A stretch of DNA of 64,000 nucleotides from Escherichia coli (lineage in GTDB: Bacteria; Pseudomonadota; Gammaproteobacteria; Enterobacterales; Enterobacteriaceae), in NCBI RefSeq assembly GCF_003334335.1, contig NZ_QOWQ01000005.1. One strand, given 5' to 3'. Position numbers and translations under genes: made by a program. Each line of letters opens with the position of its first letter. Position 1 is the stretch's first letter. Under the pieces are notes generated by a model that saw only the letters and a list, made by a program, of their open reading frames with translations, made no database searches and was not told the origin of the DNA. This document shows positions 21,949 through 63,256 of this stretch, one piece after another.

Positions 21949-22354
21949 AATAAATAGCTGACTTATGGATGTGCTGGGGATTCTATGTATTTAGCACCGG
22001 GTTTGCCATTACTTTTCCTTTTTTTGACTTAATTAGCCTCTGTTTGAGCTGATCTGCCGCTAGATCTTCATTTTTTTTGTATTTTTATGCGATTCATTGA
22101 ATTTCAGCCAGGATTGCAGCTTTACATCGACAATATCTGGATTCTCGAGTATGCAAAATTTTATCTCTATGATTTTTATAATTAAAACATATTTTGTGTA
22201 TAAAAATCATTCGGGTCGGATTGCTGCGAAAGAAATGATACACTAGCGCGTCAAAGTAAGTGCGTTATCAGTATTCGGGTAGCTGTTGAGCCTGGGGCGG
22301 TAGCGTGCTTTTTTCTGCTTAACTTAACCAGACAATCACACAAAAGAGTCGCTA
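21949..22354. promoter_or_regulatory. Divergent waaA / waaQ control region (AT-rich, long waaQ leader)
   Basis: 406-bp AT-rich intergenic region between divergent operons; contains the ops element listed separately. Confidence 0.55.
22296..22307 (+). promoter_or_regulatory. ops element GGCGGTAGCGTG (RfaH recruitment site, JUMPstart core)
   Basis: Exact GGCGGTAG octamer followed by CGTG, about 50 nt upstream of the waaQ start on the coding strand. Confidence 0.75.
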
Positions 22355-23425
22355 GTGGAAAAGCCATTTCGAAAAATCCTGGTCATAAAGATGCGATATC
22401 ACGGAGATATGTTATTAACTACTCCTGTAATCAGTACACTCAAGCAGAATTATCCCGACGCAAAAATCGATATGCTGCTTTACCAGGATACAATTCCGAT
22501 TTTATCTGAAAACCCAGAAATTAATGCACTCTATGGTATAAGCAATAAAGGTACGGGAACATTCGATAAAATTAAAAATGCACTTTCACTGATAAAAACT
22601 CTGCGTGCGAATAATTACGACCTGGTCATTAATCTTACGGATCAGTGGATGGTGGCCCTGCTGGTACGTTGTTTACCTGCTCGTATGAAAATATCGCAGC
22701 TTTATGGTCATCGGCAGCATGGCATTTGGAAAAAAAGCTTTACACACTTAGCGCCTATACACGGTACACATATTGTTGAGCGTAATTTGTCGGTCCTTGA
22801 GCCATTAGGTATTACCGATTTTTATACTGAAACAACCATGAGTTACGCCGAGGATTGCTGGAAGAAAATGCGCCAGGAATTAGATGCACTGGGCGTGAAA
22901 GATCATTATGTCGTCATCCAGCCGACAGCCAGACAGATATTTAAGTGCTGGGACAACGATAAATTTTCTATGGTTATCGATGCGTTGCAACATCGTGGTT
23001 ATCAGGTTGTGCTGACTTGTGGCCCTTCGGCAGATGATCTCGCTTGCGTAGATGAAATTGCACGAGGCTGCCAAACAAAACCTATTACCGGCCTTGCCGG
23101 TAAAACACGTTTTCCTGAACTGGGCGCATTAATTGATCATGCAGTGCTCTTTATTGGTGTGGATTCTGCGCCGGGGCATATTGCAGCGGCTGTGAAGACG
23201 CCAGTTATTAGCCTGTTTGGGGCCACTGATCATGTATTCTGGCGTCCATGGACCGAGAATATTATTCAGTTCTGGGCGGGGAATTATCAAAAAATGCCTA
23301 CCCGGCACGAACTTGACCGCAACAAAAAATATCTTTCTGTTATTCCAGCGGAAGATGTCATTGCCGCTACGGAAAAGCTGTTGCCAGAAGATGCACCTTC
23401 AGCTGACAGGAATGCGCAATTATGA
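22355..23425 (+). CDS. waaQ: LPS heptosyltransferase III (GT9)
   Basis: GTG start with AAAGAG RBS; N-terminal KILVIKMRYHGDML aligns with the WaaC/WaaF N-terminal motifs, so the start must lie upstream of Met13. Confidence 0.8.
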   Translation: MEKPFRKILVIKMRYHGDMLLTTPVISTLKQNYPDAKIDMLLYQDTIPILSENPEINALYGISNKGTGTFDKIKNALSLIKTLRANNYDLVINLTDQWMVALLVRCLPARMKISQLYGHRQHGIWKKSFTHLAPIHGTHIVERNLSVLEPLGITDFYTETTMSYAEDCWKKMRQELDALGVKDHYVVIQPTARQIFKCWDNDKFSMVIDALQHRGYQVVLTCGPSADDLACVDEIARGCQTKPITGLAGKTRFPELGALIDHAVLFIGVDSAPGHIAAAVKTPVISLFGATDHVFWRPWTENIIQFWAGNYQKMPTRHELDRNKKYLSVIPAEDVIAATEKLLPEDAPSADRNAQL

Positions 23426-24546
23426 TCGTGGCATTTTGCTTATATAAATATTTTCCATTTGGTGGGCTACAGCGTGACTTTATGCGTATTGCCTCAACAG
23501 TTGCCGCACGGGGCCACCATGTTCGGGTATATACACAGTCGTGGGAAGGCGATTGCCCGGAAGCATTTGAGCTTATTCGCGTACCGGTTAAATCCCATAC
23601 TAACCATGGACGTAATGCAGAATATTATGCCTGGGTTCAAAACCATCTGAAGGCACATCCCGCTGATCGCGTTGTTGGCTTTAATAAGATGCCTAGGCTG
23701 GATGTTTATTTTGCCGCCGATGTCTGTTATGCCGAGAAAGTGGCGCAAGAAAAGGGATTTTTCTATCGTTTAACATCGCGCTATCGCCATTATGCTGCAT
23801 TCGAGCGAGCGACTTTCGAACATGGTAAATCGACGAAACTTATGATGTTGACCGATAAGCAAATCGCCGATTTTCAGAAGCATTACCAAACTGAACCAGA
23901 ACGTTTTCAAATTCTTCCCCCTGGTATCTATCCTGACAGAAAATACAACGCGCAAATCCCAAACAGTCGTGAAATTTATCGCCAGAAAAATGGCATCACT
24001 GAACAACAAAACTTATTGCTGCAGGTTGGTTCAGATTTTGGTCGTAAAGGTGTGGATCGCTCAATTGAAGCTTTGGCATCGTTACCAGAATCGTTACGCC
24101 ATAATACGTTGTTGTTTGTTGTTGGCCAGGATAAACCGCGTAAATTTGAAGTGCTGGCAGAAAAACTCGGTGTGCGTAGTAAAGTGCATTTCTTTTCCGG
24201 GCGGAATGATGTGTCTGAATTAATGGCAGCCGCTGATTTATTAATGCATCCCGCTTATCAGGAGGCTGCAGGTATTGTTCTCCTTGAGGCAATTGCCGCG
24301 GGATTACCTGTGTTGACGACTGCGGTATGCGGATACGCACACTATATCACAGATGCTAATTGTGGAACGGTCATCGCTGAACCTTTCTCCCAGGAACAAT
24401 TAAATGACGTTTTACGTAAAGCGTTAACTCAATCTCCATTGCGCATGGCCTGGGCGGAGAATGCTCGGTATTACGCCGATACTCAGGATTTATACAGCCT
24501 GCCGGAGAAAGCGGCAGATATCATTACAGGTGGTTTAGATGGTTGA
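23422..24546 (+). CDS. waaG: LPS core glucosyltransferase I (GT4)
   Basis: 374-aa ORF; ATGA start/stop overlap with waaQ. Confidence 0.9.
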
Positions 24547-25336
24547 ATTAGAAGAGCCACTTGCCACACTCTGGCGTGGTAAAGATGCCTTTGCAGAAGT
24601 TAAAAAACTGAATGGCGAGGTCTTCCGTGAACTGGAGACGCGTCGCACATTACGCTTTGAACTGGCCGGCAAAAGTTATTTCCTCAAATGGCACAAAGGG
24701 ACGACCCTAAAGGAGATTATAAAAAATCTGCTCTCATTGCGGATGCCCGTTTTAGGTGCAGACAGAGAGTGGCACGCTATTCATCGACTGCATGATGTCG
24801 GTGTTGATACGATGCACGGAATAGGATTTGGTGAAAAAGGGTTAAATCCATTAACTCGCACATCATTTATTATTACCGAAGATCTCACTCCCACAATTAG
24901 CCTTGAAGATTATTGTGCAGATTGGGCGGTCAACCCGCCTGATGTACATATTAAGCGTATGCTGATCGCGCGTGTGGCAACCATGGTGCGCAAAATGCAT
25001 GCAGCAGGGATTAATCACCGTGATTGTTATATCTGCCACTTTTTACTCCATTTGCCATTTACTGGCCGGGAAGATGAATTAAAAATTTCGGTTATCGATC
25101 TGCACCGGGCACAGATACGTGCAAAAGTACCACGTCGTTGGCGGGATAAAGATTTGATTGGTTTATATTTCTCATCAATGAATATTGGTCTGACGCAGAG
25201 AGATATCTGGCGATTTATGAAGGTTTATTTTGGGATGCCTTTACGCGATATTTATAGACTTGAGATTGATTTACTTAAAAAGGCAAGGATTAAAGCAGGA
25301 AAAATAGAAGCAAGAACAATAAGAAAAAACTTGTAA
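24539..25336 (+). CDS. waaP: LPS core heptose(I) kinase
   Basis: 265-aa ORF with kinase-like catalytic motifs ([11 protein letters not shown]); 8-nt overlap with waaG. Confidence 0.9.
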
Positions 25337-25368
25337 ATAGTATTTTATTACAAAAAGGGATTCTAAAA

Positions 25369-26349
25369 TTGTTGAAATATAGAAACTTCGTTGCTAAGAA
25401 GAAAAATTTATACCAAAACGAAGTGTCGTATGTTAAAAATTTACATATTGCACTATGCTTTGACCGTGAATTCATAATGCCAGCGGGTGTTGCATTATAT
25501 TCAATTATATCCAACAATAGACATATTAACCTTCATTTTCACCTTCTTATATCAGGCATAGAAGAAAAGGAGTGTTCAGCTTTTTACGAACTAGAAGGTC
25601 CTAATACATCAATATCTGTATATTATATAACTGATAAATTTGACATTAATCCGGATACATTAGTTCTTGGTATTCCTTTATCAACATGTTTACGTTTTTT
25701 AATCCCAGAAGTTATTGATGATAAAATAAATAAGATACTTTATCTTGACTGTGATGTCATATGTAATGGTCCTTTAGATGAACTGGTTGATTATAATTTA
25801 AATGCTGATATTGCATGTGTAATTCCAGATTCGCCAGAAATGCAAGAACGTGTAAAAAAATTAGACTATGGCATTGAGTTTATTAATTATTTTAATGCCG
25901 GGGTTATGTTTATTAATACCAGCGAATGGAAAAAAAATAATATAACACAAAAAGCGTTAGAAATGATCAACAGTGGAAAAGTATATAGGTATGCAGATCA
26001 GGATGTGCTCAATATTTTACTTAATGGACGAGTGCATTACCTTGATAAGAAGTACAATAATAAGACAACATTGTCAGTACGATGTGATGAAGAACAAAAA
26101 AACTTGCCCAACACAATTATAATGCATTATGTTACCCAGAATAAACCATGGTACAAAATATTTAGAGCACAAAATTTTGATCATTATTTTTCAAATTCTC
26201 CTTGGAAGAACCATAAAAGAAATCTAGCTCCATCATCAAGTGAGATTAGGTTAAAGTCTAAAGTTTTTTGGCTAGAAGGAAAATATTGTAAAGCCATTTC
26301 TTATTATTATAAGTATTTACTTGTTAAATTATTTGGCTTAAAGATTTAG
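25369..26349 (+). CDS. LPS core glycosyltransferase, GT8-like, at the waaS position
   Basis: 326-aa ORF from TTG start; YLDCDV (DxD), FNAGVMFIN and DQDVLN motifs shared with the two downstream GT8 paralogs; very low GC. Confidence 0.6.
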   Translation: MLKYRNFVAKKKNLYQNEVSYVKNLHIALCFDREFIMPAGVALYSIISNNRHINLHFHLLISGIEEKECSAFYELEGPNTSISVYYITDKFDINPDTLVLGIPLSTCLRFLIPEVIDDKINKILYLDCDVICNGPLDELVDYNLNADIACVIPDSPEMQERVKKLDYGIEFINYFNAGVMFINTSEWKKNNITQKALEMINSGKVYRYADQDVLNILLNGRVHYLDKKYNNKTTLSVRCDEEQKNLPNTIIMHYVTQNKPWYKIFRAQNFDHYFSNSPWKNHKRNLAPSSSEIRLKSKVFWLEGKYCKAISYYYKYLLVKLFGLKI

Positions 26350-26362
26350 CTGGAATGAAATT

Positions 26363-27442
26363 ATGAAAATAGCCTTTATTGGCGAAGCTGTTTCTGGATT
26401 TGGCGGCATGGAAACAGTCATTCGTGATGTTATTACTACCTTCAGGCAACAACATATCCAAAGTGAAATTTTTTTCTTTTGTCGTAATGACAAAATGGAT
26501 AAGGGATGGCTGGAAGGTATTAAGTACTCGTGTTCATTTTCCAATATTCGCTTAGGTTTTTTGCGTCGCGCGAAACATATTCATGCTTTAAGCAAATGGC
26601 TTCATGATTATCAGCCAGATGTTGTTATTTGTATTGACGTGATCTCGTGTTTGTATGCGGCCAAAGCTCGTAAAAAATCGGGGATTGATGTACCTGTATT
26701 TTCATGGCCGCATTTTTCTTTAGATCATAAAAAACATGCCGAATATATCACCTGTGCCGACTATCATTTAGCCATCAGCTCTGGTATTAAACAGCAAATG
26801 ATTAGCCGGGGTGTACCAGAATCGACAATAAACGTTATTTTTAATCCCGTTGAGGCGAAAAATTCAGTCATTCCTGCACCCGGGGAAGGCGAAACGGCAA
26901 CATTCATTTATGTTGGGCGCATGAAATTTGAAGGCCAAAAGCGCGTAAAAGATCTGCTTGATGGCTTATCACAAGTGCAAGGTGACTGGAAACTTCATGT
27001 ATTGGGAGATGGCTCCGATTTCGAAAAATGCCAGGCTTATGGTAGAGGATTAAATATTGATGATCGAATTGTCTGGTATGGTTGGCAACAACATCCCTGG
27101 AAATTAGTTCAGCAAGATATTAAAAAAGTGAGTGCATTATTACTCACGTCATCTTTTGAAGGTTTCCCAATGACTCTACTTGAAGCCTTGTCGTGGGGGA
27201 TCCCTTGTATCAGTGCAGATTGTGTCTCCGGGCCTGTTGATATCATTCAGCCTGATGTTAATGGTCATTTATATCAACCGGGGGATATGACCGGTTTTGT
27301 TGCTCTTCTCAATAAATACATAGCCGGTGAAATTCACATCGCACATGAAAAAATTCCGGCGTCGATCGATAAATTTTATCAACCGAAATATTACGACAGA
27401 TTGCAAAAGATAATTATTTCTGTTATTTCCCGGAGGAAATAA
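26363..27442 (+). CDS. waaB: LPS core alpha-1,6-galactosyltransferase (GT4)
   Basis: 359-aa ORF MKIAFIGEAVSGFGGMETV..., GT4 C-terminal EGFPMTLLEA motif. Confidence 0.8.
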   Translation: MKIAFIGEAVSGFGGMETVIRDVITTFRQQHIQSEIFFFCRNDKMDKGWLEGIKYSCSFSNIRLGFLRRAKHIHALSKWLHDYQPDVVICIDVISCLYAAKARKKSGIDVPVFSWPHFSLDHKKHAEYITCADYHLAISSGIKQQMISRGVPESTINVIFNPVEAKNSVIPAPGEGETATFIYVGRMKFEGQKRVKDLLDGLSQVQGDWKLHVLGDGSDFEKCQAYGRGLNIDDRIVWYGWQQHPWKLVQQDIKKVSALLLTSSFEGFPMTLLEALSWGIPCISADCVSGPVDIIQPDVNGHLYQPGDMTGFVALLNKYIAGEIHIAHEKIPASIDKFYQPKYYDRLQKIIISVISRRK

Positions 27443-28461
27443 TGCAGCAGGTTTTTTTCCAGGAGACTGAGTTTCTCAATTCGGTTATTGATTATAATCA
27501 TAAAATAGAAGCAGAAAATCTTTGTCTGGATATTGCTTATGGGACTGACAAAAATTTTCTTTTTGGATGCGGAATATCGATTGCTTCAATATTAAAATAT
27601 AATGAAGGAAATCAATTATGCTTTCATATTTTTACTGATTATTTCGGTGATGACGATCGCAAATATTTTGATGCCCTGGCCAGGCAATATAAAACAAGAA
27701 TTAAGATATATTTAATTAATGGTGATCGACTCCGTTCATTACCCTGCACCAAGAACTGGACTCATGCTATTTATTTTCGTTTTGTTATCGCCGATTACTT
27801 TTTTAATAAAGCACCCAAAGTTCTTTATCTGGATGCAGATATTATTTGTCAGGGAACTATAGAACCACTTATCAATTACACGTTTTCTGAACATACAGTC
27901 GCAATGGTTGTTACAGAAGGACAAAAAGACTGGTGGGCAAAACGTGCTCATTCGTTAGGTGTTGCTGGGATTGCTAATGGTTACTTTAACTCCGGTTTTT
28001 TACTGATTAATACTAATCAATGGACGAATGAGCGGGTTTCTGCACGGGCCATTGCAATGTTAAGTGATCCAGAGATAGTCAAAAAAATAACACATCCTGA
28101 TCAGGATGTATTAAATATGTTATTGGCAGACAAACTTGTTTATGCTGATATTAAATATAACACTCAGTTTAGTTTAAATTATCAACTAAAAGAAAGTTTT
28201 AAAAACCCAGTAACTAACGATACAGTTTTTATTCATTATATTGGTCCAACTAAACCCTGGCATGACTGGGCCTGGGATTATCCAATATCACAAGCTTTTA
28301 TGGCGGCAAAAAATGCTTCACCATGGAAGGATACTGCGTTATTGAAACCGGTTAATAGTAATCAATTAAGATACAGTGCTAAACATATGTTGAAAAAAAA
28401 GCAATATATCAAAGGATTTGGCAACTATCTTTTGTATTTTATAAAAAAGCTAAAGCATTAA
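27442..28461 (+). CDS. waaI: LPS core alpha-1,3-glycosyltransferase (GT8)
   Basis: 339-aa ORF; GT8 motifs YLDADIIC, FNSGFLLIN, DQDVLNMLL; 1-nt overlap with the waaB stop. Confidence 0.75.
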   Translation: MQQVFFQETEFLNSVIDYNHKIEAENLCLDIAYGTDKNFLFGCGISIASILKYNEGNQLCFHIFTDYFGDDDRKYFDALARQYKTRIKIYLINGDRLRSLPCTKNWTHAIYFRFVIADYFFNKAPKVLYLDADIICQGTIEPLINYTFSEHTVAMVVTEGQKDWWAKRAHSLGVAGIANGYFNSGFLLINTNQWTNERVSARAIAMLSDPEIVKKITHPDQDVLNMLLADKLVYADIKYNTQFSLNYQLKESFKNPVTNDTVFIHYIGPTKPWHDWAWDYPISQAFMAAKNASPWKDTALLKPVNSNQLRYSAKHMLKKKQYIKGFGNYLLYFIKKLKH

Positions 28462-28624
28462 TACTGATAATCTATACTCTAAATAATTCGAGTTGCAGGA
28501 CAAAAAGCCAGTGGCGTTTTGAGGAACGCTTGCGTTGGCCCTGAAATGCCGAGTAACTCGCCGATGCAGCACATGCAACTTGAAGTATAACGAGTATATA
28601 AAGTAATGATATAAGGATAGCCTT

Positions 28625-29641
28625 GTGAACTCATTTCCTGCCATAGAGATAGATAAAGTTAAAGCCTGGGATTTTAGGCTTATTGATGAAAATACTGCTG
28701 AAAGTTTAAATGTTGCCTATGGTGTCGATTCCAATTATCTTGATGGTGTAGGTGTTTCCATTACTTCAATTGTCATTAATAATCGACATGTTAATCTTGA
28801 TTTTTATATTATTGCTGATGTTTATAACGACGATTTCTTTCAAAAAGTTGAGAAACTTGCTGAGCAATACCAATTAAGAATCACACTTTATAGAATAAAT
28901 ACTGATAATCTTCAGTGCCTGCCTTGTACACAAGTCTGGTCAAGAGCAATGTACTTCCGTTTATTTGCTTTTCAATTATTGGGAGTAACACTTAATCGTT
29001 TGCTTTATCTTGATGCCGATGTAGTTTGTAAGGGAAATATTAGTCAACTATTGCATTTAGAGTTTAATGGAGCGGTGGCTGCAGTAGTCAGGGATGTAGA
29101 CCCAATGCAGGAAAAGGCGGTAGTCAGATTATCTGATCCTGAACTTCGGGGGCAGTATTTTAATTCTGGTGTCGTTTACTTAGACCTAAAAAAATGGACA
29201 GAAGCAAAACTAACCGAAAAAGCACTGTCTATTCTTATGAGTAAAGATAGTATTTATAAGTATCCTGACCAGGACGTTATGAATGTCCTACTAAAAGGGA
29301 TGACAATATTCCTGCCACGTGAGTTCAATACTATATATACAATAAAAAGTGAGTTAAAAGATAAAACGCATCAAAAATATAAAGAGTTGATAAAAGAGGA
29401 TACTCTTCTTATTCATTATACTGGGGCCACCAAGCCGTGGCACAAATGGGCAATTTATCCATCGGTAAAATACTATAAAATAGCTTTAGAAAGATCCCCC
29501 TGGAAAGATGACTCACCACGAGATGCAAAATCAATTATTGAATTCAAAAAAAGATATAAACATCTGTTAGTGCAACATCATTATATCTCAGGACTCATTG
29601 CAGGAGTGTGTTATCTTTGCCGAAAATATTACCGTAAATAA
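28625..29641 (+). CDS. waaJ: LPS core alpha-1,2-glycosyltransferase (GT8)
   Basis: 338-aa ORF from GTG start with AAGGA RBS; GT8 motifs YLDADVVC, FNSGVVYLD, DQDVMNVLL. Confidence 0.75.
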   Translation: MNSFPAIEIDKVKAWDFRLIDENTAESLNVAYGVDSNYLDGVGVSITSIVINNRHVNLDFYIIADVYNDDFFQKVEKLAEQYQLRITLYRINTDNLQCLPCTQVWSRAMYFRLFAFQLLGVTLNRLLYLDADVVCKGNISQLLHLEFNGAVAAVVRDVDPMQEKAVVRLSDPELRGQYFNSGVVYLDLKKWTEAKLTEKALSILMSKDSIYKYPDQDVMNVLLKGMTIFLPREFNTIYTIKSELKDKTHQKYKELIKEDTLLIHYTGATKPWHKWAIYPSVKYYKIALERSPWKDDSPRDAKSIIEFKKRYKHLLVQHHYISGLIAGVCYLCRKYYRK

Positions 29642-29658
29642 CATTTAACTGGTTTAAC

Positions 29659-30357
29659 ATGATTCAGAAGAATAAAATCAAAGATTTAGTTGTTTTTACC
29701 GATGAAAATAACTCAAAGTATCTCAATGTATTAAATGACTTTCTTTCTTATGATATTAATATCATCAAAGTTTTTCGTTCTATAGATGATACAAAAGTCA
29801 TGCTTATTGATACCGATTACGGTAAATTGATACTTAAAGTTTTTTCGCCTAAAGTAAAACGCAACGAACGTTTCTTTAAATCTCTTTTAAAGGGAGATTA
29901 TTATGAACGCCTTTTTGAGCATACTCAAAAAGTGCGTAACGAGGGGCTACATTCTCTCAATGATTTTTATTTGTTGGCAGAACGGAAAACATTACGTTTT
30001 GTCCATACTTATATCATGCTTATCGAATATATCGATGGCGTAGAGTTGTGTGATATCCCCGATATTGATGAAACTTTAAAAAATAAAATTCAACAATCAA
30101 TTCGTTCATTACACGAACACGGTATGGTATCTGGTGATCCTCACCGCGGTAATTTTATTATTGAAAATGGTGAAGTACGCATTATTGATCTTTCAGGAAA
30201 ACGGGCATCTGCACAACGTAAAGCGAAAGATCGTATTGATTTAGAGCGACATTATGGTATTAAGAATGAGGTTAAAGATCTCGGTTATTATCTTTTAGTT
30301 TATCGTAAAAAAATACGTAATCTTATGCGGCGTTTGAAAGGGAAGCCAGCACGATAA
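29659..30357 (+). CDS. waaY: LPS core heptose(II) kinase
   Basis: 232-aa ORF; small kinase-like protein at the position WaaY occupies in this cluster. Confidence 0.75.
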   Translation: MIQKNKIKDLVVFTDENNSKYLNVLNDFLSYDINIIKVFRSIDDTKVMLIDTDYGKLILKVFSPKVKRNERFFKSLLKGDYYERLFEHTQKVRNEGLHSLNDFYLLAERKTLRFVHTYIMLIEYIDGVELCDIPDIDETLKNKIQQSIRSLHEHGMVSGDPHRGNFIIENGEVRIIDLSGKRASAQRKAKDRIDLERHYGIKNEVKDLGYYLLVYRKKIRNLMRRLKGKPAR

Positions 30358-30428
30358 AGTAAAAGTCTTACATTTAAACGTCTTCGTCAGGACATTTCTA
30401 TGCGGAGTTCTTATTTCACAGGTTTATC

Positions 30429-31238
30429 ATGAAGAATATTAGATACATTGACAAAAAAGATGTTGAAAACCTGATAGAAAGTAAAACGTCTGATGATGTT
30501 ATTATTTTTCTTTCCGGCCCCGCATCGCAAAAAACACCATTGTCAGTGCTGCAGACAAGGGATGTTATTGCTGTCAATGGTTCTGCACAATATCTATTAA
30601 GTCATAATATTATTCCCTATATTTATGTACTTACCGATGTTCGCTTTTTACATCAACGGCGTGATGATTTTTATAAATTTAGCCAGAGAAGTCGTTATAC
30701 CATCGTAAATGTTGACGTTTATGAACATGCTTCTGAAGAAGATAAGCGGTACATCCTTCAAAACTGCCTGGTACTACGTTCATTTTACCGCAGAGAAAAA
30801 GGTGGATTGATCAAGAAGATCAAGTTTAATATTTTGAGCCGAATTCATAAAGAGCTCCTGATCTCTGTACCTTTTTCTAAAAAAGGTCGTCTGGTTGGCT
30901 TTTGCAAGGATATTAACCTCGGTTATTGTTCATGCCATACCGTTGCTTTTGCTGCAATCCAAATAGCCTATTCGCTGAAGTATGCTCGTATTATCTGTTC
31001 AGGCCTTGATTTAACGGGTAGCTGTTCGCGTTTCTATGATGAAGATAAGAATCCTATGCCCTCAGAGTTGACTCGGGATTTATTCAAAATTTTACCATTT
31101 TTCCGTTTTATGCGTGAAAATATAGAAGATATCAATATTTATAATTTATCCGACGATACTGCAATTCAATATGATATTATTCCCTATATGAAAATATCCG
31201 AAATTGAAGAGCCGTGTGTTTATGAAAAAATAAGCTAA
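30429..31238 (+). CDS. waaZ: LPS core biosynthesis protein WaaZ (KdoIII-associated)
   Basis: 269-aa ORF at the WaaZ position in the WaaY-WaaZ-WaaK order; assignment by position and size. Confidence 0.65.
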   Translation: MKNIRYIDKKDVENLIESKTSDDVIIFLSGPASQKTPLSVLQTRDVIAVNGSAQYLLSHNIIPYIYVLTDVRFLHQRRDDFYKFSQRSRYTIVNVDVYEHASEEDKRYILQNCLVLRSFYRREKGGLIKKIKFNILSRIHKELLISVPFSKKGRLVGFCKDINLGYCSCHTVAFAAIQIAYSLKYARIICSGLDLTGSCSRFYDEDKNPMPSELTRDLFKILPFFRFMRENIEDINIYNLSDDTAIQYDIIPYMKISEIEEPCVYEKIS

Positions 31239-31290
31239 TATTTTATATGTGTTTATTACGTGTTATAAATTATATTGGAGTTGGCTAATA

Positions 31291-32433
31291 ATGATTAAAA
31301 AAATAATATTTACCGTCACACCAATATTTTCTATACCGCCAAAAGGAGCTGCAGCGGTTGAAACATGGATTTATCAGGTCGCAAAAAGACTTTCGATTCC
31401 AGTAACTATCGCCTGTATTCGAAACGAAGGTTACCCAACCTACACAAAAGTAAATGATCACTGTGATATTCACTACATTGGTTTTAGTCGAGTCTATAAA
31501 CGACTTTTCCAAAAGTGGACTCGACTTGATCCTGTGCCATATTCTCAGCGTATTTTAAATACCCAACCTAAAAACACTGATCCGAAAGACTCTGTTATTG
31601 TTATCCACAATAGCATGAAGCTGTATAAACAGATTCGTAGCAGAAGCCCTCACGCGCAGCTAGTTATGCATCTTCATAATGCTTTCGAGCCAGGTGAGTT
31701 AGACAAAAATGCAAAGATAATTGTTCCTAGCCAGTTTCTTTTCGATTTCTATTCGGAAAAAATGCCTGATGCAAATATTGCTATTGTGCCTAATGGTTTT
31801 TGTTCTGAATCGTATGAACAAAATAATACTGAAGATTTGAGGCAGAAACTGAACATTGATGCAAATGATACCGTGTTATTATTTGCAGGAAGGATATCAC
31901 CAGATAAAGGTTGCCTGATGCTTATGGAGGCTTTTAATCAGCTGAATAAGATACAAGATAACCTCAAACTGGTGATTGTCGGAGATCCTTTTGCCAGTAA
32001 AAAAGGCGAAAAAGCTGAATATCAGAAAAAAGTTCTGGATGCAGCGAAAGCTATTGGAGCGCAATGCATTATGGCGGGTGGACAGCCTCCAGAGCAGATG
32101 CATAACTATTACCGTTTAGCAGATTTAGTTGTTGTTCCTTCTCAGGTAGAAGAAGCTTTTTGTATGGTAGCTGTTGAAGCGATGGCGGCAGGTAAACCAG
32201 TGCTTGCCAGTCAAAAAGGTGGAATTAGTGAGTTTGTTCTGGAAGGAATTACAGGCTATCACCTTGCAGAGCCTATGACATCTGAAAGTATTCTCGCGGA
32301 TATTAAGCGCGTTTTGGCGGATGCTGACAGAGCTCAAATTGCTAAAAATGCCCGAAATTTTGTTTTCTCAAAATATAGCTGGGAACATGTTACTCAGCGT
32401 TTTGAAGCACAAATACAAGACTGGTTTGGTTAA
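31291..32433 (+). CDS. waaK: LPS core GlcNAc transferase-like glycosyltransferase (GT4), Salmonella/R2-type
   Basis: ORF 31249..32433 trimmed to ATG 31291 (GGAG RBS at 31277-31280), 380 aa; GT4 fold; size fits WaaK rather than the K-12 WaaU length I recall. Confidence 0.65.
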   Translation: MIKKIIFTVTPIFSIPPKGAAAVETWIYQVAKRLSIPVTIACIRNEGYPTYTKVNDHCDIHYIGFSRVYKRLFQKWTRLDPVPYSQRILNTQPKNTDPKDSVIVIHNSMKLYKQIRSRSPHAQLVMHLHNAFEPGELDKNAKIIVPSQFLFDFYSEKMPDANIAIVPNGFCSESYEQNNTEDLRQKLNIDANDTVLLFAGRISPDKGCLMLMEAFNQLNKIQDNLKLVIVGDPFASKKGEKAEYQKKVLDAAKAIGAQCIMAGGQPPEQMHNYYRLADLVVVPSQVEEAFCMVAVEAMAAGKPVLASQKGGISEFVLEGITGYHLAEPMTSESILADIKRVLADADRAQIAKNARNFVFSKYSWEHVTQRFEAQIQDWFG

Positions 32434-32452
32434 AAATTATTGGATTTGAAGA

Positions 32453-32488
32453 GCCTGCCTGAACTTAATGTCAGGCAGGCTTTTTTTT
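32453..32488. terminator. Bidirectional terminator between convergent waaK and waaL
   Basis: Perfect 10-bp stem gcctgcctga / tcaggcaggc with 8-nt loop and T8 run; the waaL stop codon lies within the T-run. Confidence 0.7.
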
Positions 32489-33704
32489 ATTTATTCCGCA
32501 TTGCTAACAGTAAACCAACAATCAAGCCAATTGGTTTGAGATCAACTTCCTCGAAGTTACCTCGAATAATATAAAAGCTTACAAGCGTTAAAAATAGTAG
32601 TAATTGACCATTATAAGGAGTGACGACAACTGTTTTAAACGTTGCATTAGCTGTCTCTTTGATAATAGAGCCATACAGATAAAGTAAAGCGAGTAGTCCA
32701 GCCAAACCCGCTGCAAACCAAATTGACAAAACAACGTTGTGTGGCCCAATGGATTGCCTGAACTTCCATGACGGAAAATCTACAACACGCTTATTATATA
32801 TTGCATGGTAAATATCATCGCCGTAGCCATATCCCTTAAGAGGATTTTCCATAATTAATGTCCACGCCGTACCTTGAGTACCATTGGTATAGCGATAAGA
32901 ACTGTCGGTCTGTTGAAGTTTATAAATAAGCCTGTCTTTACCAGCATGATCACCTTTATAGGTAAATACACCCACTGCGGCAACAGAAATAACGATGGAA
33001 GTCAGCATCAATAATTTCCACTGACGATTTAAGATTAACCATAGCAGAGTCACTATGAATACTGCCAGCCATGCACCACGAGACAGCGTTCCTAATAGCA
33101 GAAATAAGAAAACTGCACTAAAAATTACGAATGCTATTTTATAAGAGGTTTTCTTGATAAGCCAAAGGTTTAATAATGCTGGAAACAGAAACACCATTGA
33201 ATCGGAAATACTACGGTGTTCATAGGTGGAAAATGGCATTATTCCTTTATTATAATCCTGAATATAAAGAATAAGTTCAACAAGACAACGTAAGCCAAGT
33301 CCGGTAACTAATGAGTATAGTACAATTTTACCAATGCTTTCATTATCTTCATCTTTTAATAATGCAGGTATAAGTAAACTATAGGCCAAAAATCCTTTAA
33401 GTACCGTATTACTGAATTCTTTAAAACTGATTTTCAGATCAGGTGATATAAAAGTAGCATATAAAAGAATGAGTGATAGTGCCAGGACACTATAAAAAAG
33501 ATTATTTTTATAGAGTACTTTAAATGTTCCCGGAGCACGAGAAACTTGATAGATTACCGTAATAATCATTAGTATAGATATGATGTGTTTATAACGGGTT
33601 ATACCATCAAGGAAAAAGGTTGCAATAAAGAGGAATACCAACGCTTTATTCCAGTACGGTTTCCACTTTTCTTTATTACGTAGCGCCAGCGAGGCTGTTA
33701 ACAT
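32487..33704 (-). CDS. waaL: O-antigen ligase
   Basis: 405-aa polytopic membrane ORF MLTASLALRNKEKWKPYWNKALVFLF...; N-terminus resembles the Salmonella/R2-type WaaL I recall, not the K-12 WaaL. Confidence 0.85.
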   Translation of the reverse strand: MLTASLALRNKEKWKPYWNKALVFLFIATFFLDGITRYKHIISILMIITVIYQVSRAPGTFKVLYKNNLFYSVLALSLILLYATFISPDLKISFKEFSNTVLKGFLAYSLLIPALLKDEDNESIGKIVLYSLVTGLGLRCLVELILYIQDYNKGIMPFSTYEHRSISDSMVFLFPALLNLWLIKKTSYKIAFVIFSAVFLFLLLGTLSRGAWLAVFIVTLLWLILNRQWKLLMLTSIVISVAAVGVFTYKGDHAGKDRLIYKLQQTDSSYRYTNGTQGTAWTLIMENPLKGYGYGDDIYHAIYNKRVVDFPSWKFRQSIGPHNVVLSIWFAAGLAGLLALLYLYGSIIKETANATFKTVVVTPYNGQLLLFLTLVSFYIIRGNFEEVDLKPIGLIVGLLLAMRNK

Positions 33705-33742
33705 TGCTTCTCCACCATCTTAAATAATATATAACGTATTAA

Positions 33743-34699
33743 TCAGGAATTGATTTTATTAAATACCGTTTCTGCAGTCAGATGAGCAAGATCTTTATCT
33801 GGTGCCCTACAAACCACCTGATTCTTCCCATATCCGCCAATTAATCCCGGATCGGTTGGTCCATAAACCGTGATATTCGGTCGATCCAGTGCTGCAGTTA
33901 AATGACTTAACCCAGTGTCTACCGATACCACGAATTTCGCTCCGGCCAGCACACGGGCAACACCTTCCAGACTCATCTTCGGCAATACTTCAACATAAGC
34001 AAATCCTTCCGCCAGTCGTTTCGCCCGTTTTTCCTCATGCGGCGCACCCCACGGAAGTTTAATGCGAATCCCTGAATCTGCCAGTAAACCAATCAATTCT
34101 CGCCAGTGTTCTTCCGGCCAGTGTTTATCATCACGGGTCGTCGCATGAAGAAATACGGCATATTCGCCAGCATCTGTAGGCAGGTTCGTCAGAAAATGCT
34201 GTGCGATAGCATAATCGCCCTGGGTTTGCGGTTTGCTATAGCCCAGACTTTTGGCAAAAAGTTCGCGGATGCGTTCTACGGCGTGCTGCTGTTTTGCAAT
34301 ATGATGTTTACGATTGTAAAACAGGCTGGCTAAAGGTTCGCGAGCGGTTTGCCAGTCCATTCCATGCTTTACGCCATGCGCCAGACGCGTCACCAGCGCC
34401 GCGCTTTTTACCAGCCCCTGAGCATCGATAACTGCGTCATAGTTCTCTGCTTGTAGCGCTTCACGAAACGCTTTGCGTTCAGCTTTTATGGGGGCCGAGA
34501 ACCAGGCTTTACGCCAGCGACGTATTGCCACAGGAATAACTCGCTCAACGGCGGCGTGCCAGGAAGGAATCTGTGCGAACCCTTCTTCCACCACCCAGTC
34601 AAACTTAATCCCTGGGATTGCCTGCTGGGCATCAGTGAGTGCGGGCAACGTATGGAGAACATCGCCCATCGACGATGTTTTAACGATCAAAACCCGCAT
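33743..34699 (-). CDS. waaC: LPS heptosyltransferase I (GT9)
   Basis: 318-aa ORF MRVLIVKTSSMGDVLHTLPALTDA. Confidence 0.9.
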   Translation of the reverse strand: MRVLIVKTSSMGDVLHTLPALTDAQQAIPGIKFDWVVEEGFAQIPSWHAAVERVIPVAIRRWRKAWFSAPIKAERKAFREALQAENYDAVIDAQGLVKSAALVTRLAHGVKHGMDWQTAREPLASLFYNRKHHIAKQQHAVERIRELFAKSLGYSKPQTQGDYAIAQHFLTNLPTDAGEYAVFLHATTRDDKHWPEEHWRELIGLLADSGIRIKLPWGAPHEEKRAKRLAEGFAYVEVLPKMSLEGVARVLAGAKFVVSVDTGLSHLTAALDRPNITVYGPTDPGLIGGYGKNQVVCRAPDKDLAHLTAETVFNKINS

Positions 34700-34702
34700 C
34701 CG

Positions 34703-35749
34703 TCAGGCTTCCTCTTGTAACAATAGAGAGTTGAGTTCTTCCAGCACGCGCTGGGGAGTAATGTCGATCAAGCTCTGGTGATAACCTTCTGCGGCGTCGC
34801 CTTTGCGTACTTTGTGATAGCCGGTAATCAGGCGGATCACGCGCGCTTTATGGGATAGCGGCGGTGTGAAGTCCGGGCTACTCGGACCATACAGGGCAAC
34901 CAGCGGACGATTGAGCGCCGCCGCAACGTGCATCAGGCCAGAATCGTTAGTGACAATGGCTTTACAGGCTGCAATCAGGATAACCGCTTGATCAAGCTGT
35001 GTTTCCCCCGCCAGGTTCCGGCACCATGCCTGCTGCTCGGTATTTAAAGCGGCAAGAATCTCATTGCCCGCTTCATGATCTTTCGCCGAGCCAAACAGAA
35101 CCACTTGATAACCTTCATCAATCAGTTGCTTTGCCAGTTCCGCATAGTGGTAGTGTGGCCAGCGTTTTGCCGGACCAAACTCCGCACCCGGGCAAAAACC
35201 AATCATTGGACGTTCTGATGAAAGCGAAAATTGATTACAGGTATATGATTTTTCACCTTCGCTCACCTGCAACTGCGGCCATAACAATGGCTGCGGCAGA
35301 TCTTGTGCGGTACGCATAATACCTTTGTCATAGGCCAGCGCCACATAGCGTTCCACCATCAGCGGCCAGGCTTCTTTATCCAGCACACGCACATCGTTGA
35401 GTAAACCGTAGCGCATTTCGCCGCGCCAGCCGGTGCGATGAGGAATACCCGCGAAGAAAGGCACTAATGCGGATTTGAAGGAGTTGGGTAAAACGTAGGC
35501 GCGGTCGTAACGTTTTTCGCGCAGGCTATGACCCAGCTTGCGGCGTTCGCCAATTTCCAGCGCCCCGTGACCAAGCGGCATAGGAATGGCTTCGTTAACT
35601 TCCGGCATCCGCGATAATAATGGACGGCACCATGCCGGTGCCATCACGTCGATTATCGCCTGGGGATAGCGCGCCTGGAGCGTGCGATAGAGACTTTGCG
35701 ACATCATCATGTCGCCAACCCATGACGGGCCGATCACCAATATTTTCAT
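34703..35749 (-). CDS. waaF: LPS heptosyltransferase II (GT9)
   Basis: 348-aa ORF MKILVIGPSWVGDMMMSQSLYRTL. Confidence 0.9.
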   Translation of the reverse strand: MKILVIGPSWVGDMMMSQSLYRTLQARYPQAIIDVMAPAWCRPLLSRMPEVNEAIPMPLGHGALEIGERRKLGHSLREKRYDRAYVLPNSFKSALVPFFAGIPHRTGWRGEMRYGLLNDVRVLDKEAWPLMVERYVALAYDKGIMRTAQDLPQPLLWPQLQVSEGEKSYTCNQFSLSSERPMIGFCPGAEFGPAKRWPHYHYAELAKQLIDEGYQVVLFGSAKDHEAGNEILAALNTEQQAWCRNLAGETQLDQAVILIAACKAIVTNDSGLMHVAAALNRPLVALYGPSSPDFTPPLSHKARVIRLITGYHKVRKGDAAEGYHQSLIDITPQRVLEELNSLLLQEEA

Positions 35750-35828
35750 TCACTTCATCCTTCAAGCTGTCTCTGCGGCGGCTGCCTGCGTTCACTCCGG
35801 TCACTTACTTTTGTAAGCTCCCGGAGAT

Positions 35829-36809
35829 TCACTTAGTTGCTGCCTTGATACTGCTCGAATGATTTTGTGAATTTACGTTGATGTCGCGATTCAGCCAGGC
35901 CATGTATTCCGTTACGCCTTCGGCAACGGTTTTGAACGGTTTGTCATAACCCGCCGCGCGCAGATTCGTCAGATCTGCCTGCGTGAATGCCTGATAGCGG
36001 CCTTTCAGTTTATCCGGGAACGGAATGTATTCGATCTGGCCTTTCTTGTGATAAGCAAGCGTTGCATCGGCTACCGCCTGGAAGGATTCCGCACGACCAG
36101 TACCGAGGTTGAAGATGCCGGAAACGCCATTTTCCAGGAACCACAGGTTTACATCTGCCACGTCGCCAACATAGACGAAGTCGCGTTTAAAGTTCTCGCT
36201 ACCTTCGAACAGTTTCGGTGATTCACCGTTATTAAGCTGGGTGTTGAGATGGAAAGCGACGCTCGCCATGCTGCCTTTATGGCCTTCACGCGGTCCATAA
36301 ACGTTGAAATAACGGAAGCCAACAATCTGTGAGTTTGCTTCCGGCAGAATTTGACGAACATATTCATCAAACAGGAATTTCGAGTAACCGTAGACGTTCA
36401 ACGGTTTTTCGTACTCGCGGGATTCAATAAAGTCGGAAGTGCGACCGCCGTAAGTGGCTGCGGATGAAGCGTACAGGAACGGGATTTCACGCTCCAGGCA
36501 GTAGTGCAGCAGCTCCTTGGAGTATTGATAGTTGTTATCCATCATATACTTGCCGTCCCACTCGGTGGTGGAAGAGCACGCGCCTTCGTGGAAAATCGCT
36601 TCGACATCGCCGAACTCTTCGCCAGCCATAATCTGGATCAGGAAGTCTTCCTTATCCATATAGTCTGCGATATTCAGGTCCACCAGGTTCACAAACTTGG
36701 TGCCGTCTTTCAGGTTGTCCACCACCAGAATATCGGTGATGCCTTTGTCATTCAGGGCTTTAACGATGTTGCTGCCGATAAAGCCCGCGCCGCCGGTAAC
36801 GATGATCAT
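35829..36809 (-). CDS. hldD: ADP-L-glycero-D-manno-heptose 6-epimerase, with a 16-residue C-terminal extension
   Basis: 326-aa [22 protein letters not shown] (Rossmann); ends ...[23 protein letters not shown] where I recall the canonical protein ending ...AWLNRDA (310 aa). Confidence 0.85.
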
Positions 36810-37022
36810 AACTGTAACCTTCGAATTGTGGAGTCAGAGACAATCTCAGACACGAATACTTCTATCATATCACTACACGGCGCTGGCTACAGCCATTCAC
36901 CGAAAGTGGTATGCCTGAGCGTGATTTATGCTTATTTTTTGACAAGTACAAATGCTTCATCTCGTATCAACCTATGGCTTTCGGTAATATGTGCTGAAAT
37001 TTGCCCAGTCTGGAGAATCGCG

Positions 37023-58194: not shown

Positions 58195-59331
58195 ATGGAT
58201 CTATTGATTGTTTTAACTTACGTGGCGCTGGCGTGGGCGGTCTTTAAAATCTTCCGCATTCCGGTAAATCAGTGGACGCTGGCGACGGCGGCGCTGGGAG
58301 GCGTGTTTCTGGTGAGTGGTTTGATTTTGTTGATGAACTACAACCACCCTTACACTTTTACCGCGCAAAAGGCAGTGATAGCGATCCCTATCACGCCACA
58401 GGTGACGGGAATTGTTACTGAAGTCACTGACAAGAATAATCAGCTTATTCAAAAGGGCGAGGTGCTTTTTAAGCTCGACCCGGTTCGTTACCAGGCGCGA
58501 GTTGACAGACTTCAGGCTGACCTGATGACGGCGACGCATAATATAAAGACGCTGCGTGCGCAGCTCACTGAAGCGCAGGCCAACACCACCCAGGTTTCAG
58601 CGGAGCGCGACCGTCTGTTTAAAAATTATCAACGTTACTTGAAAGGCAGCCAGGCGGCGGTGAATCCGTTCTCGGAACGTGACATCGACGATGCGCGGCA
58701 AAATTTCCTCGCGCAGGATGCGCTGGTGAAAGGCTCGGTGGCGGAGCAGGCGCAGATCCAGAGCCAGCTCGACAGTATGGTTAACGGCGAGCAATCGCAG
58801 ATTGTGAGCTTAAGAGCGCAACTTACTGAAGCAAAATATAACCTTGAGCAGACTGTCATTCGCGCGCCGAGCAATGGCTACGTTACTCAGGTACTGATCC
58901 GCCCAGGTACATACGCAGCTGCCTTGCCGCTGCGTCCGGTGATGGTCTTCATCCCCGAGCAAAAACGGCAAATTGTCGCCCAATTTCGGCAAAACTCGCT
59001 GTTACGTCTGAAACCCGGCGATGATGCGGAAGTGGTGTTTAACGCGCTACCTGGGCAGGTGTTTCACGGCAAACTGACTAGTATTTTACCTGTCGTGCCA
59101 GGCGGTTCTTATCAGGCGCAGGGGGTATTGCAATCATTAACGGTCGTGCCCGGCACGGACGGTGTGCTGGGAACCATTGAACTGGACCCTAACGATGATA
59201 TCGATGCCTTACCCGACGGCATCTACGCCCAGGTGGCGGTTTACTCCGACCATTTCAGCCATGTTTCGGTGATGCGGAAAGTGCTGCTAAGAATGACCAG
59301 CTGGATGCATTATCTTTATTTGGATCATTGA
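58195..59331 (+). CDS. yibH: HlyD-family periplasmic adaptor protein
   Basis: 378-aa ORF with N-terminal TM anchor, coiled-coil and beta-barrel regions typical of membrane-fusion proteins. Confidence 0.8.
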
Positions 59332-59790
59332 GGGGGAGGGGGGAGATTATGGAACTTTGCTCCTTGTAAGGACTAATTATTTTTGCATATTACTTCATTA
59401 GCTGCGATGATTTTTCTTTAATATTCATTATGTTAATAAGTTCTGGATGAGTGTGCTCTCATTGGATTTTTTATCCGTCTTGTTCTGCCGCAGGATGAGA
59501 CTATACATCGTCGAGATCGCAATGATGATATGAGTTGTTCCTCCTGCGACGGCTCTAATCAAAAAAGAGCAGGAGTGCTTTTCCATCTATTGCGATGATG
59601 GCTTTATTATCTGAAGGATGACAGTCACATTTAAAAAATATTTAATCTATAGATCACAATGTAGGGTCATGGAATATATGTATACAACTATTTTCTTCTT
59701 CACTTTTAATTATCGTATTCATTATAAAACTAAGTTAAAAAAACTCCTGGAGAGTGAGTTATTAATATATTTTTAAATAAAATTAAGTTA

Positions 59791-60228
59791 TCATTCATCG
59801 ATGCACTTTATAGAATCATCAATGGCCATAATAGTACTATTAACTCTCAATTTTATATTTTTATCATCACTACAAATATTAACTGAATTTATATCAATGA
59901 TTTTTTTATTCTTATCTTTTATTTTATTTACTGTTTCAATGCAATCAGCGGCAAGTTGGAGTGGATTTAGATTTTTCAGATATGGTCTTATGATCTTTCC
60001 CTTACTTAATAAATAGCATGTATAGGATTCGGAAAGTCCAGCATCTATTTTGTACCTCATTATATTAGATAAGGATGTGAGAAATTCCTTGTTATCATTC
60101 GCAGCCATATATGCCAGTCCGAGTTCAGCCTCTGCGGCCTTACAGGCAAAATAGCTTAGTGAACACGCTTTTCGTCCCTCTTTAGTACTGGCTGATATTA
60201 GTGCCCATAATATTGCTTTGTCTGCCAA
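59791..60228 (-). CDS. Hypothetical protein; candidate immunity protein of the degenerate third Rhs module
   Basis: 145-aa AT-rich ORF immediately downstream (minus strand) of a degraded Rhs C-terminal remnant; role inferred from position only. Confidence 0.4.
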   Translation of the reverse strand: MADKAILWALISASTKEGRKACSLSYFACKAAEAELGLAYMAANDNKEFLTSLSNIMRYKIDAGLSESYTCYLLSKGKIIRPYLKNLNPLQLAADCIETVNKIKDKNKKIIDINSVNICSDDKNIKLRVNSTIMAIDDSIKCIDE

Positions 60229-60316
60229 ATCTAACTCTCTCTGAAATTGTCTTGCAGTAACTGCACTCGCAGAAATAGAGAAAAAAATACAATTGTTAAT
60301 AACCTTGCCATATTTT

Positions 60317-60900
60317 TTAGTCCGTAACTGTTAATGTGCTATCTGGCTCTGAAAATATTAACTCATTTAATTTTTGCATGTCATTAGATAAACCAGTTAT
60401 ACAACCCTCGGAACAGAATCGAGGTCCTAAAGACGGACCAAAAGCGTTTAAACAACTATGTATTGAAAATCCATTGCGATTATAAGTTCCTGTATTAACT
60501 GACGGTACTAATCGTATGCCGTCAGGTTTTCTATTGCTTGCTCCCGGGTCATTAACATTCCAACTCCATAGGCCTTGAGGTATTGGCCATCTATTTATAA
60601 ATGTGTACAACGGGGATTATTTTTACATTGCATATTATTACCAGAAGCGACTGGAATACTAAGCACATCATAAAAATTATCATCACATGGTATATCTGAA
60701 ACACACGAAAGCATACCTAAAGTTATGCTGTATAAACAGGTGGCTAATCCCAAGGGGATCGATTCCAGAAATCGGGTTCAACGGATACTGATAAAAATTC
60801 CACCTACCTTCCAGCCCAATCGGAGCCTGAGTGTTATACCGCCCCTGCTGCGGTTAATGTTACCGATAATAGTTATAGTACAGCCCTGATTCATCATCAT
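60317..60900 (-). pseudogene. Degenerate orphan Rhs C-terminal (toxin-tip) remnant
   Basis: About 140 bp (60764-60900) of degraded similarity to the Rhs core 3' repeat, followed by AT-rich sequence with only a 97-aa ORF (60317..60610) and no continuous frame. Confidence 0.45.
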
Positions 60901-60934
60901 ACTACTGCTGCGGCAGTCTGATGAACTATTGCTT

Positions 60935-61396: not shown

Positions 61397-61407
61397 ACAT
61401 CTACAAC

Positions 61408-62352: not shown

Positions 62353-62393
62353 CGTGCCGGCGGGAATCCCCCACTGTGCATAGGCAACTCACG

Positions 62394-63236: not shown

Positions 63237-63256
63237 TGCAGGAACCTCCACAAGGG

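Follow-up and report, generated by a model that had tools for sequence, protein, structure and literature searches.

Which lipopolysaccharide core does the AT-rich centre of the waa locus of Escherichia coli encode in a given strain, that of K-12, that of R2 or a mixture of both? The question matters in practice, since the core type determines which O-antigens can be ligated and which phages, colicins and core-directed antibodies recognise the strain. R2 has been recognised since 1998 as a type mixing K-12-like and Salmonella-like genes, and it is already called by existing in silico typers. Its prototype strain is F632 (Heinrichs, Monteiro, Perry & Whitfield 1998, J Biol Chem 273:8849, as cited in PMC13293308). 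Here, a stretch of 64,000 nucleotides (the window) was analysed, and within it a cassette at 25337-33704, that is, from the base right after the waaP stop codon to the base with which the waaL start codon begins. We conclude, with a probability of about 95%, that this cassette and its flanks constitute the canonical waa locus of the R2 core type in E. coli, and the R2 identity is supported by gene content, orthology and typing. The locus is thus one that was already known, and the initial annotation, which had placed it with R2 and Salmonella rather than with K-12, was correct about an ordinary finding; its correct typing is useful for annotation and leaves current understanding unchanged.

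The features of the locus are collected in Table 1, and the gene order, strands and lengths agree with those first described (a GT8 gene, waaB, waaO, waaR/J, waaY, waaZ, a GT4 gene and a convergent 405-aa ligase gene). The JUMPstart leader upstream of waaQ indicates where the RfaH-dependent waaQ operon, which contains the cassette, begins; waaQ, waaG and waaP (rfaQ, rfaG and rfaP in RefSeq), the inner-core and first-glucose genes, precede it. The conserved inner-core genes do flank the cassette as had been claimed, with 91-98% identity to K-12 for waaQ, waaG and waaP and 95-100% for waaC, waaF and hldD. The open reading frame of the GT4 protein spans 394 aa from a GTG; counted from the RefSeq start, an ATG at 31291, the protein has 380 aa. 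A hairpin followed by a T-run, situated between the convergent genes waaK and waaL, is likely the terminator of the waaQ operon, and a promoter scan returned no more sites than in shuffled sequence.

Table 1. Features of the waa locus, in coordinates of the window
Feature	Coordinates	Strand	Evidence
JUMPstart (ops-containing) leader	22269..22307	+	Rfam RF01707, 53.1 bits (gathering score 35), E = 7e-10
waaQ, waaG, waaP	22355..25336	+	98%, 96% and 91% aa identity to K-12
wabA, 326-aa GT8	25369..26349	+	no WaaS match; 31%/29% identity to WaaJ/WaaO
waaB, predicted alpha-1,6-galactosyltransferase	26363..27442	+	92% to K-12 WaaB; NF007396, 593 bits (cut-off 385)
waaO, GT8	27442..28461	+	88% to K-12 WaaO; 55-56% to Salmonella WaaI
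intergenic repeat, ~124 bp	28477..28600		break in K-12 alignment, waaO-waaR spacer
waaR (rfaJ/waaJ), predicted GT8 alpha-1,2-glucosyltransferase	28625..29641	+	90% to K-12 WaaJ; RefSeq rfaJ
waaY, predicted HepII kinase	29659..30357	+	92% to K-12; NF007684, 394 bits
waaZ, predicted Kdo III transferase	30429..31238	+	88% to K-12; NF007333, 546 bits
waaK, predicted GT4 alpha-1,2-N-acetylglucosaminyltransferase	31291..32433	+	NF012028, 724 bits (cut-off 618)
hairpin, GC-rich 15-bp stem, then T-run	32448..32485	+	terminator scan
waaL, predicted O-antigen ligase, 405 aa	32487..33704	-	NF012031, 651 bits (cut-off 277)
waaC, waaF, hldD, heptose genes	33743..36809	-	95%, 99% and 100% identity to K-12

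Could the locus be of the K-12 type, with the heptosyltransferase WaaU and the K-12 ligase? It shares with K-12 (MG1655) its flanks and waaQ, waaG and waaP, and the next five genes in common (waaB, waaO, waaR/J, waaY and waaZ) follow in the same order as alleles 88-92% identical in amino acid sequence; even the site of the K12-R typing primer is found in waaY. However, there is no site for its partner K12-F, no homologue of WaaU, K-12 WaaL or WaaS is encoded here, and the DNA homology with K-12 breaks at 25247-26361 and 31194-33799. Where K-12 has waaS, this locus has wabA; where K-12 has waaU, encoding a GT9 heptosyltransferase, it has the GT4 gene waaK; and the K-12 WaaL, of 419 aa, is unrelated to the 405-aa ligase found here. 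K-12 differs further in carrying htrL between hldD and kbl and in lacking the 124-bp repeat in the waaO-waaJ spacer. A K-12-type core locus is therefore vanishingly improbable, and the five middle genes are diverged alleles of their K-12 counterparts, with waaS, waaU and waaL swapped for unrelated genes.

The two last genes of the cassette speak for R2. The terminal transferase is, by its sequence similarity, the WaaK that defines the R2 and Salmonella types: it shows 73.6-73.9% identity over 379 aa to WaaK of Salmonella enterica, exceeds the curated cut-off of the NCBIfam model NF012028 (‘LPS N-acetylglucosaminyltransferase’) and, among K-12 proteins, matches WaaG alone, at 26% identity, with no match to WaaU. 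WaaK is described as adding the terminal alpha-1,2-GlcNAc required by WaaL (PMC13293308). The ligase, in turn, is 65-66% identical to Salmonella WaaL from end to end and does not match K-12 WaaL significantly (E = 1.5), while neither K-12 WaaL nor K-12 WaaU matches NF012028 or NF012031. The comparison of both proteins with reference WaaK, WaaU and WaaL sequences hence favours the R2/Salmonella type, as suspected from the length of the transferase and from the ligase N-terminus, which had been quoted correctly and is included in the end-to-end similarity. Among solved structures, WaaL has no sequence-detectable relative at E <= 0.01. Typing gives the same answer: the published R2-F and R2-R primers (PMC13293308) have exact sites here, at 30775-30795 and at 31364-31384, the R2-F site being the one at 31364-31384, within waaK, and this waaZ-waaK pair yields a product of 610 bp, the published size. 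Gene content and order (waaQ-G-P-wabA-B-O-R-Y-Z-K and a convergent waaL) are shared with the R2 type of F632, no difference from it was detected, and the RefSeq annotation of genomes 100% identical here lists the same genes; judging by the typing scheme and the annotation, the locus probably corresponds to the F632 prototype sequence.

The third R2 marker is wabA, which occupies the waaS position between waaP and waaB, has no match to K-12 WaaS and replaces that unrelated gene. The initial annotation had called it GT8-like and left it there; the GT8 class holds, and the gene is itself diagnostic, being named and treated as an R2 gene in PMC13293308. Its presence also bears on whether the locus might be one of the rare K-12/R2 hybrids described in 2025, combining, for instance, waaS with waaK or wabA with waaU. 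Such arrangements have been reported in E. coli (PMC13293308), and similarly mixed loci occur in E. whittamii, with R2-type waaK and waaL but no wabA, and in Citrobacter, with wabA next to a GT9 gene and a K-12-like ligase gene. Nevertheless, wabA, waaK and R2-type waaL are all present together here, and the whole 8.4-kb cassette is at least 99% identical in 481 complete E. coli genomes. Moreover, wabA was found in 503 of 5,426 complete genomes and waaK-waaL in 501 (~9%), nearly equal counts, each as a single chromosomal copy every time. We consider a hybrid extremely unlikely, and the complete R2 set is the preferred reading.

A different question is whether the composition of the cassette betrays a recent arrival. 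Its GC content is 0.354, against 0.488 for the window, and 500-bp windows inside it (n = 16; mean 0.355, range 0.294-0.416) differ clearly from those outside the waa operon (n = 102; mean 0.513, sd 0.057; Mann-Whitney p = 2e-9). Per gene, GC ranges from 0.297 to 0.400 and GC3 from 0.235 to 0.342, while waaC, waaF and hldD show values of 0.50-0.54 and 0.455-0.615, respectively. The fall in GC noted at first reading is thus real, although the flanks were put slightly too high (at 55-58%), given that mutM (0.548), kbl (0.541), waaA (0.534) and waaF (0.538) lie lower. The drop takes place in two steps, with waaQ, waaG and waaP already intermediate (0.44). This dip, from ~54% in the flanks to 35%, might be taken as the mark of a foreign island recently acquired by the strain or its lineage, all the more since E. 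coli strains carry differing cassettes between identical flanks and the modules reassort across strains and genera. However, the equivalent cassette has an equally low GC content elsewhere, 0.332 in K-12, 0.352 in E. albertii, 0.368 in Salmonella and 0.407 in Citrobacter, so that low GC, common to every type and genus checked, is neither diagnostic of R2 nor proof of recent transfer. All cassette genes have positional orthologues in Salmonella, the synonymous divergence between R2 and K-12 from waaQ through waaZ (0.42-0.96) is comparable to that between E. coli and E. albertii, and no integrase, tRNA or insertion sequence was found at the cassette borders. A recent import is accordingly very unlikely; the shared AT-richness, the Salmonella orthologues and the synonymous divergence argue for old, maintained haplotypes. 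As to the horizontally exchanged middle that had been proposed, low GC alone does not show such an exchange for R2 in particular.

Loci of Salmonella enterica are collinear with this one gene for gene, including a GT8 gene between waaP and waaB, a WaaK of 381 aa, a WaaL of 404 aa and a similar GC dip, but the identity of the cassette proteins is just 55-74%. They were reached through WabA homologues, given that a scan of species representatives with WaaL peptide patterns needed near-exact words and missed Salmonella. The second hexosyltransferase of Salmonella, WaaI, is a galactosyltransferase, and this raises the question of the donor sugar of WaaO. Its RefSeq product name, 3-alpha-galactosyltransferase, would fit a Salmonella-like GalI, and WaaO passes the cut-off (461) of the equally named model NF011718, although sequence does not reveal the donor sugar. 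WaaO shares 88% identity with its K-12 counterpart and 55% with Salmonella WaaI, which, together with the Glc3 of the R2 core, favours glucose, and WaaO is predicted to add the second outer-core hexose as an alpha-1,3-glucosyltransferase. The R2 core has the composition Glc3-GlcNAc-Gal-Hep3-Kdo (PMC7504096).

From its gene content, the structure of the lipopolysaccharide of this strain can be outlined, taking the enzyme activities from PMC13293308 and PMC6358824, as secondary sources, and from established knowledge. The enzymes of the waaQ operon would assemble the core step by step on Kdo2-lipid A, on the cytoplasmic side of the inner membrane. WaaG would add GlcI, on which WaaB would place an alpha-1,6-Gal branch; WaaO and WaaR/J would add GlcII and GlcIII, and WaaK would cap the latter with an alpha-1,2-GlcNAc branch, giving the alpha-GlcNAc-(1->2)-alpha-Glc end expected of an R2 core oligosaccharide. 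In the inner core, WaaP and WaaY would phosphorylate HepI and HepII, respectively, WaaQ would add HepIII, and WaaZ could supply a third Kdo. At the periplasmic face, WaaL would finally join the undecaprenyl-PP-linked O-antigen to the finished core, a ligation expected to require the GlcNAc branch made by WaaK.

And what does WabA do? No assigned function was found in the searchable literature. Its cluster is assigned to Pfam PF01501 and PF08437, and the protein reaches 184 bits on NF011718, under the cut-off of 461. It aligns to LgtC (1ss9/1g9r) with E = 6e-17 and carries the GT8 LgtC-like motifs, namely the DxD metal site (as LDCDV), NAG (NAGV), DQDxLN (DQDVLN) and H...KPW (HY..KPW). With a dN/dS of 0.09-0.15, wabA is under purifying selection, and it is conserved across four genera, with positional orthologues in Salmonella enterica, Citrobacter and E. 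albertii and, in Hafnia, a 46%-identical homologue adjoining the tail-fibre genes of a P2-like prophage. We tentatively propose, at somewhat less than even odds, that WabA works as an alpha-hexosyltransferase, is maintained by selection and adds a non-stoichiometric hexose branch outside the textbook R2 core backbone. As a guess, this branch may go onto the Kdo/inner-core region, because wabA replaces waaS, the Kdo-rhamnosyltransferase gene of K-12, and, in R2, Salmonella and Citrobacter alike, occurs together with waaZ. The neighbourhood link between WabA and WaaZ is seen in Citrobacter and is absent in Hafnia, whose homologue is prophage-borne, and in Gilliamella. The positional orthologues named above and the Hafnia prophage homologue suggest that the family may represent a general, partly phage-borne, core-modifying activity.

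As for the repeat in the waaO-waaR spacer, an ERIC/IRU element was considered on account of its ends, and an Rfam search gave no match. It is a dispersed, hairpin-forming sequence (folding energy of the spacer -44.6 kcal/mol, z = -2.8), with copies in 5,411 of the 5,426 genomes and a median of three places per genome.

The waa locus of the window is of the previously described R2 core type, in agreement with the initial annotation, which had called its low-GC middle (the cassette, from wabA to waaL) R2/Salmonella-like rather than K-12; its observation is confirmed and its interpretation supported by composition, gene order, the WaaK and WaaL matches and the R2 primers. When the proteins are compared with those of K-12 MG1655 and of two Salmonella enterica loci (L009 and L011), the terminal GT4 is WaaK-like and not WaaU-like, and the ligase is of the Salmonella/R2 type and not of the K-12 type, the N-terminal resemblance to Salmonella WaaL that had been noted being seen again in the full alignment. 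Moreover, WaaK reaches 724 bits on NF012028, whose cut-off is 618, and WaaL 651 bits on NF012031 (cut-off 277), two models that the Salmonella proteins match and K-12 WaaU and WaaL do not. An independent check comes from the core typing primers published in 2025: R2-R and R2-F match exactly and delimit a 610-bp product, the same as published (PMC13293308), and K12-F, which occurs in MG1655, was not found within the window. With WabA placed in Salmonella, all eight cassette genes have a positional orthologue there, and only five have one in K-12.

Features of the waa region in window coordinates, with cassette ORFs in order and their protein identity to the references
Feature	Coordinates	Length (aa)	K-12	Salmonella
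JUMPstart element, upstream of waaQ	22269-22307			
waaQ, waaG, waaP	22355-25336			
Cassette	25337-33704			
wabA (GT8 after waaP)		326	WaaS no match; 29-31% to WaaO/WaaJ	63-66%
waaB		359	92%	63%
waaO	27442-28461	339	88%	55-56%
Repeat, waaO-waaR spacer	28477-28600			
waaR/J		338	90%	57-58%
waaY		232	92%	66-67%
waaZ		269	88%	69%
Primer R2-R	30775-30795			
Primer R2-F	31364-31384			
waaK		394	WaaU no match; 26% to WaaG only	73.6-73.9% over 379 aa
Hairpin (15-bp stem) and T-run, between convergent waaK and waaL	32448-32485			
waaL (convergent)		405	WaaL, E = 1.5	65-66% over 405 aa
hldD-kbl interval	36858-36919			
Second low-GC stretch	59000-63500			
DNA homology to K-12	up to 25246		94.8%	
	25247-26361		none	
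	26362-31193		88.3% and 86.6%	
	31194-33799		none	
	from 33800		96%	

The ORFs follow the gene order first described, the 394-aa one starting at GTG and measuring 380 aa if the annotated ATG is used. RefSeq names the genes of one identical genome rfaQ, rfaG, rfaP, "glycosyltransferase family 8 protein", waaB, waaO, rfaJ, rfaY, waaZ, "lipopolysaccharide N-acetylglucosaminyltransferase", rfaL, rfaC, rfaF, rfaD, kbl, tdh and waaH. In K-12, htrL (about 1.3 kb, 37% GC) sits between hldD and kbl, whereas here it is absent from that interval, with no other copy within the window.

The fall in GC that had been noticed also holds on computation: the cassette has 35.4%, against 48.8% for the whole window, 54.8% for mutM and 54.1% for kbl, and the sliding-window profile passes from about 0.50-0.55 at 18-22 kb to 0.29-0.42 at 25.0-34.0 kb and back to 0.50-0.55. 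Windows of 500 bp average 0.355 inside the interval (n=16) versus 0.513 (sd 0.057) outside the operon (n=102; Mann-Whitney p = 2e-9), and at third codon positions the eight cassette genes have a GC of 0.235-0.342, compared with 0.455-0.615 for waaC, waaF and hldD. Since waaQ, waaG and waaP already stand at 0.44, the fall occurs in two steps. Low GC belongs to the locus itself rather than to R2 in particular, the equivalent cassettes having 0.332 in K-12, 0.352 in E. albertii, 0.368 in Salmonella and 0.407 in Citrobacter. For the second low-GC stretch (0.33-0.39), the counterpart in an identical genome lies downstream of a gene for an RHS core protein and includes yibG, an RHS fragment that is truncated and an Imm57 immunity gene with a frameshift.

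Could the cassette then be a recent island? Against this speak the low GC common to other types and genera and a divergence at the E. albertii level: synonymous divergence between R2 and K-12 is 0.42-0.96 from waaQ to waaZ, resembling the distance between E. coli and E. albertii, and 0.19-0.21 in waaC and waaF. The values for waaQ, waaG and waaP (0.42-0.55) are about twice those of waaC and waaF, so the diverged haplotype reaches upstream past the low-GC cassette. R2-type waaK and waaL are also found in E. albertii and E. whittamii, the latter (L004) without wabA; reciprocally, a Citrobacter locus (L013; GCA_950098555.1, 10001-18294) has a wabA orthologue together with a WaaU-like GT9 of 358 aa and a K-12-like ligase of 423 aa. 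Rare K-12/R2 hybrids have been reported in E. coli (PMC13293308). The waa modules reassort, and the picture is one of old haplotypes swapped as modules, with which the "horizontally exchanged middle" of the initial annotation agrees.

Regarding core assembly, we infer the enzyme activities at the R2 locus through orthology, with steps drawn from general pathway knowledge and secondary citations in PMC13293308, PMC6358824 and PMC7504096. WaaG would add GlcI and WaaB the Gal branch, WaaO GlcII and WaaR GlcIII, and WaaK the terminal alpha-1,2-GlcNAc predicted to be needed by its cognate WaaL for O-antigen ligation; WaaP and WaaY would phosphorylate the heptoses, and WaaZ would add a third Kdo. 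RefSeq/NCBIfam names the waaO product "3-alpha-galactosyltransferase"; given its closeness to the K-12 glucosyltransferase WaaO (88%, and only 55% to Salmonella WaaI) and the three glucoses of the R2 core, this label probably misstates the sugar. In the waaO-waaR spacer lies a roughly 124-bp repeat bounded by inverted repeats, which K-12 lacks at this site; copies of it are present in 5,411 of the 5,426 E. coli genomes, at a median of 3 places per genome. It lies about 25 nt upstream of waaR, and the fold of the spacer is a long hairpin with a free energy of -44.6 kcal/mol (z = -2.8); in K-12, waaR synthesis is reportedly repressed by the sRNAs RybB and MicA (PMC6358824).

The published R2 composition, Glc3-GlcNAc-Gal-Hep3-Kdo (PMC7504096), accounts for every transferase but WabA. 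Its gene, which PMC13293308 names wabA as the one that R2 has here, occupies the position of K-12 waaS, a member of another family (NF053598, WaaS/CpsH). WabA lies far under the cut-off of the WaaO/WaaI equivalog model (184 bits, cut-off 461), which means that it is no mere third copy of WaaO or WaaI. In an alignment with LgtC, the galactosyltransferase of Neisseria, it retains the DxD, NAG, DQDxLN and H..KPW motifs. Its dN/dS, measured against the alleles of E69, E. albertii and Salmonella, is 0.09-0.15, the hallmark of a working gene. At the position between waaP and waaB, homologues are present in E. albertii and E. coli E69 (79%) and, at lower identity, in Salmonella enterica (63-66%) and a Citrobacter (63%). 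In Hafnia paralvei (CP014031.2; L014, 10001-10969), a 46%-identical homologue directly adjoins the genes for tail fibre and tail-fibre assembly in a P2-like prophage. Such a spot is typical for lysogenic-conversion genes that modify the receptor.

The 8,368-base cassette recurs at 100% identity on many complete E. coli chromosomes. In 501 of 5,426 genomes 80% or more of it is present (at least 99% identical in 481), and about 1,026 more show only partial matches at 80-90% identity. The near-equal counts of wabA (503/5,426 complete genomes) and waaK-waaL (501/5,426) indicate that these markers travel together, and about 9% of complete E. coli genomes have the R2 type, which the literature associates with phylogroup A. 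Contigs with waaL and waaK 99.8-100% identical to the R2 cassette also appear in a "Bacillota bacterium" MAG (L003) and a "Flavihumibacter" MAG (L006), and almost certainly represent E. coli DNA that contaminates these bins.
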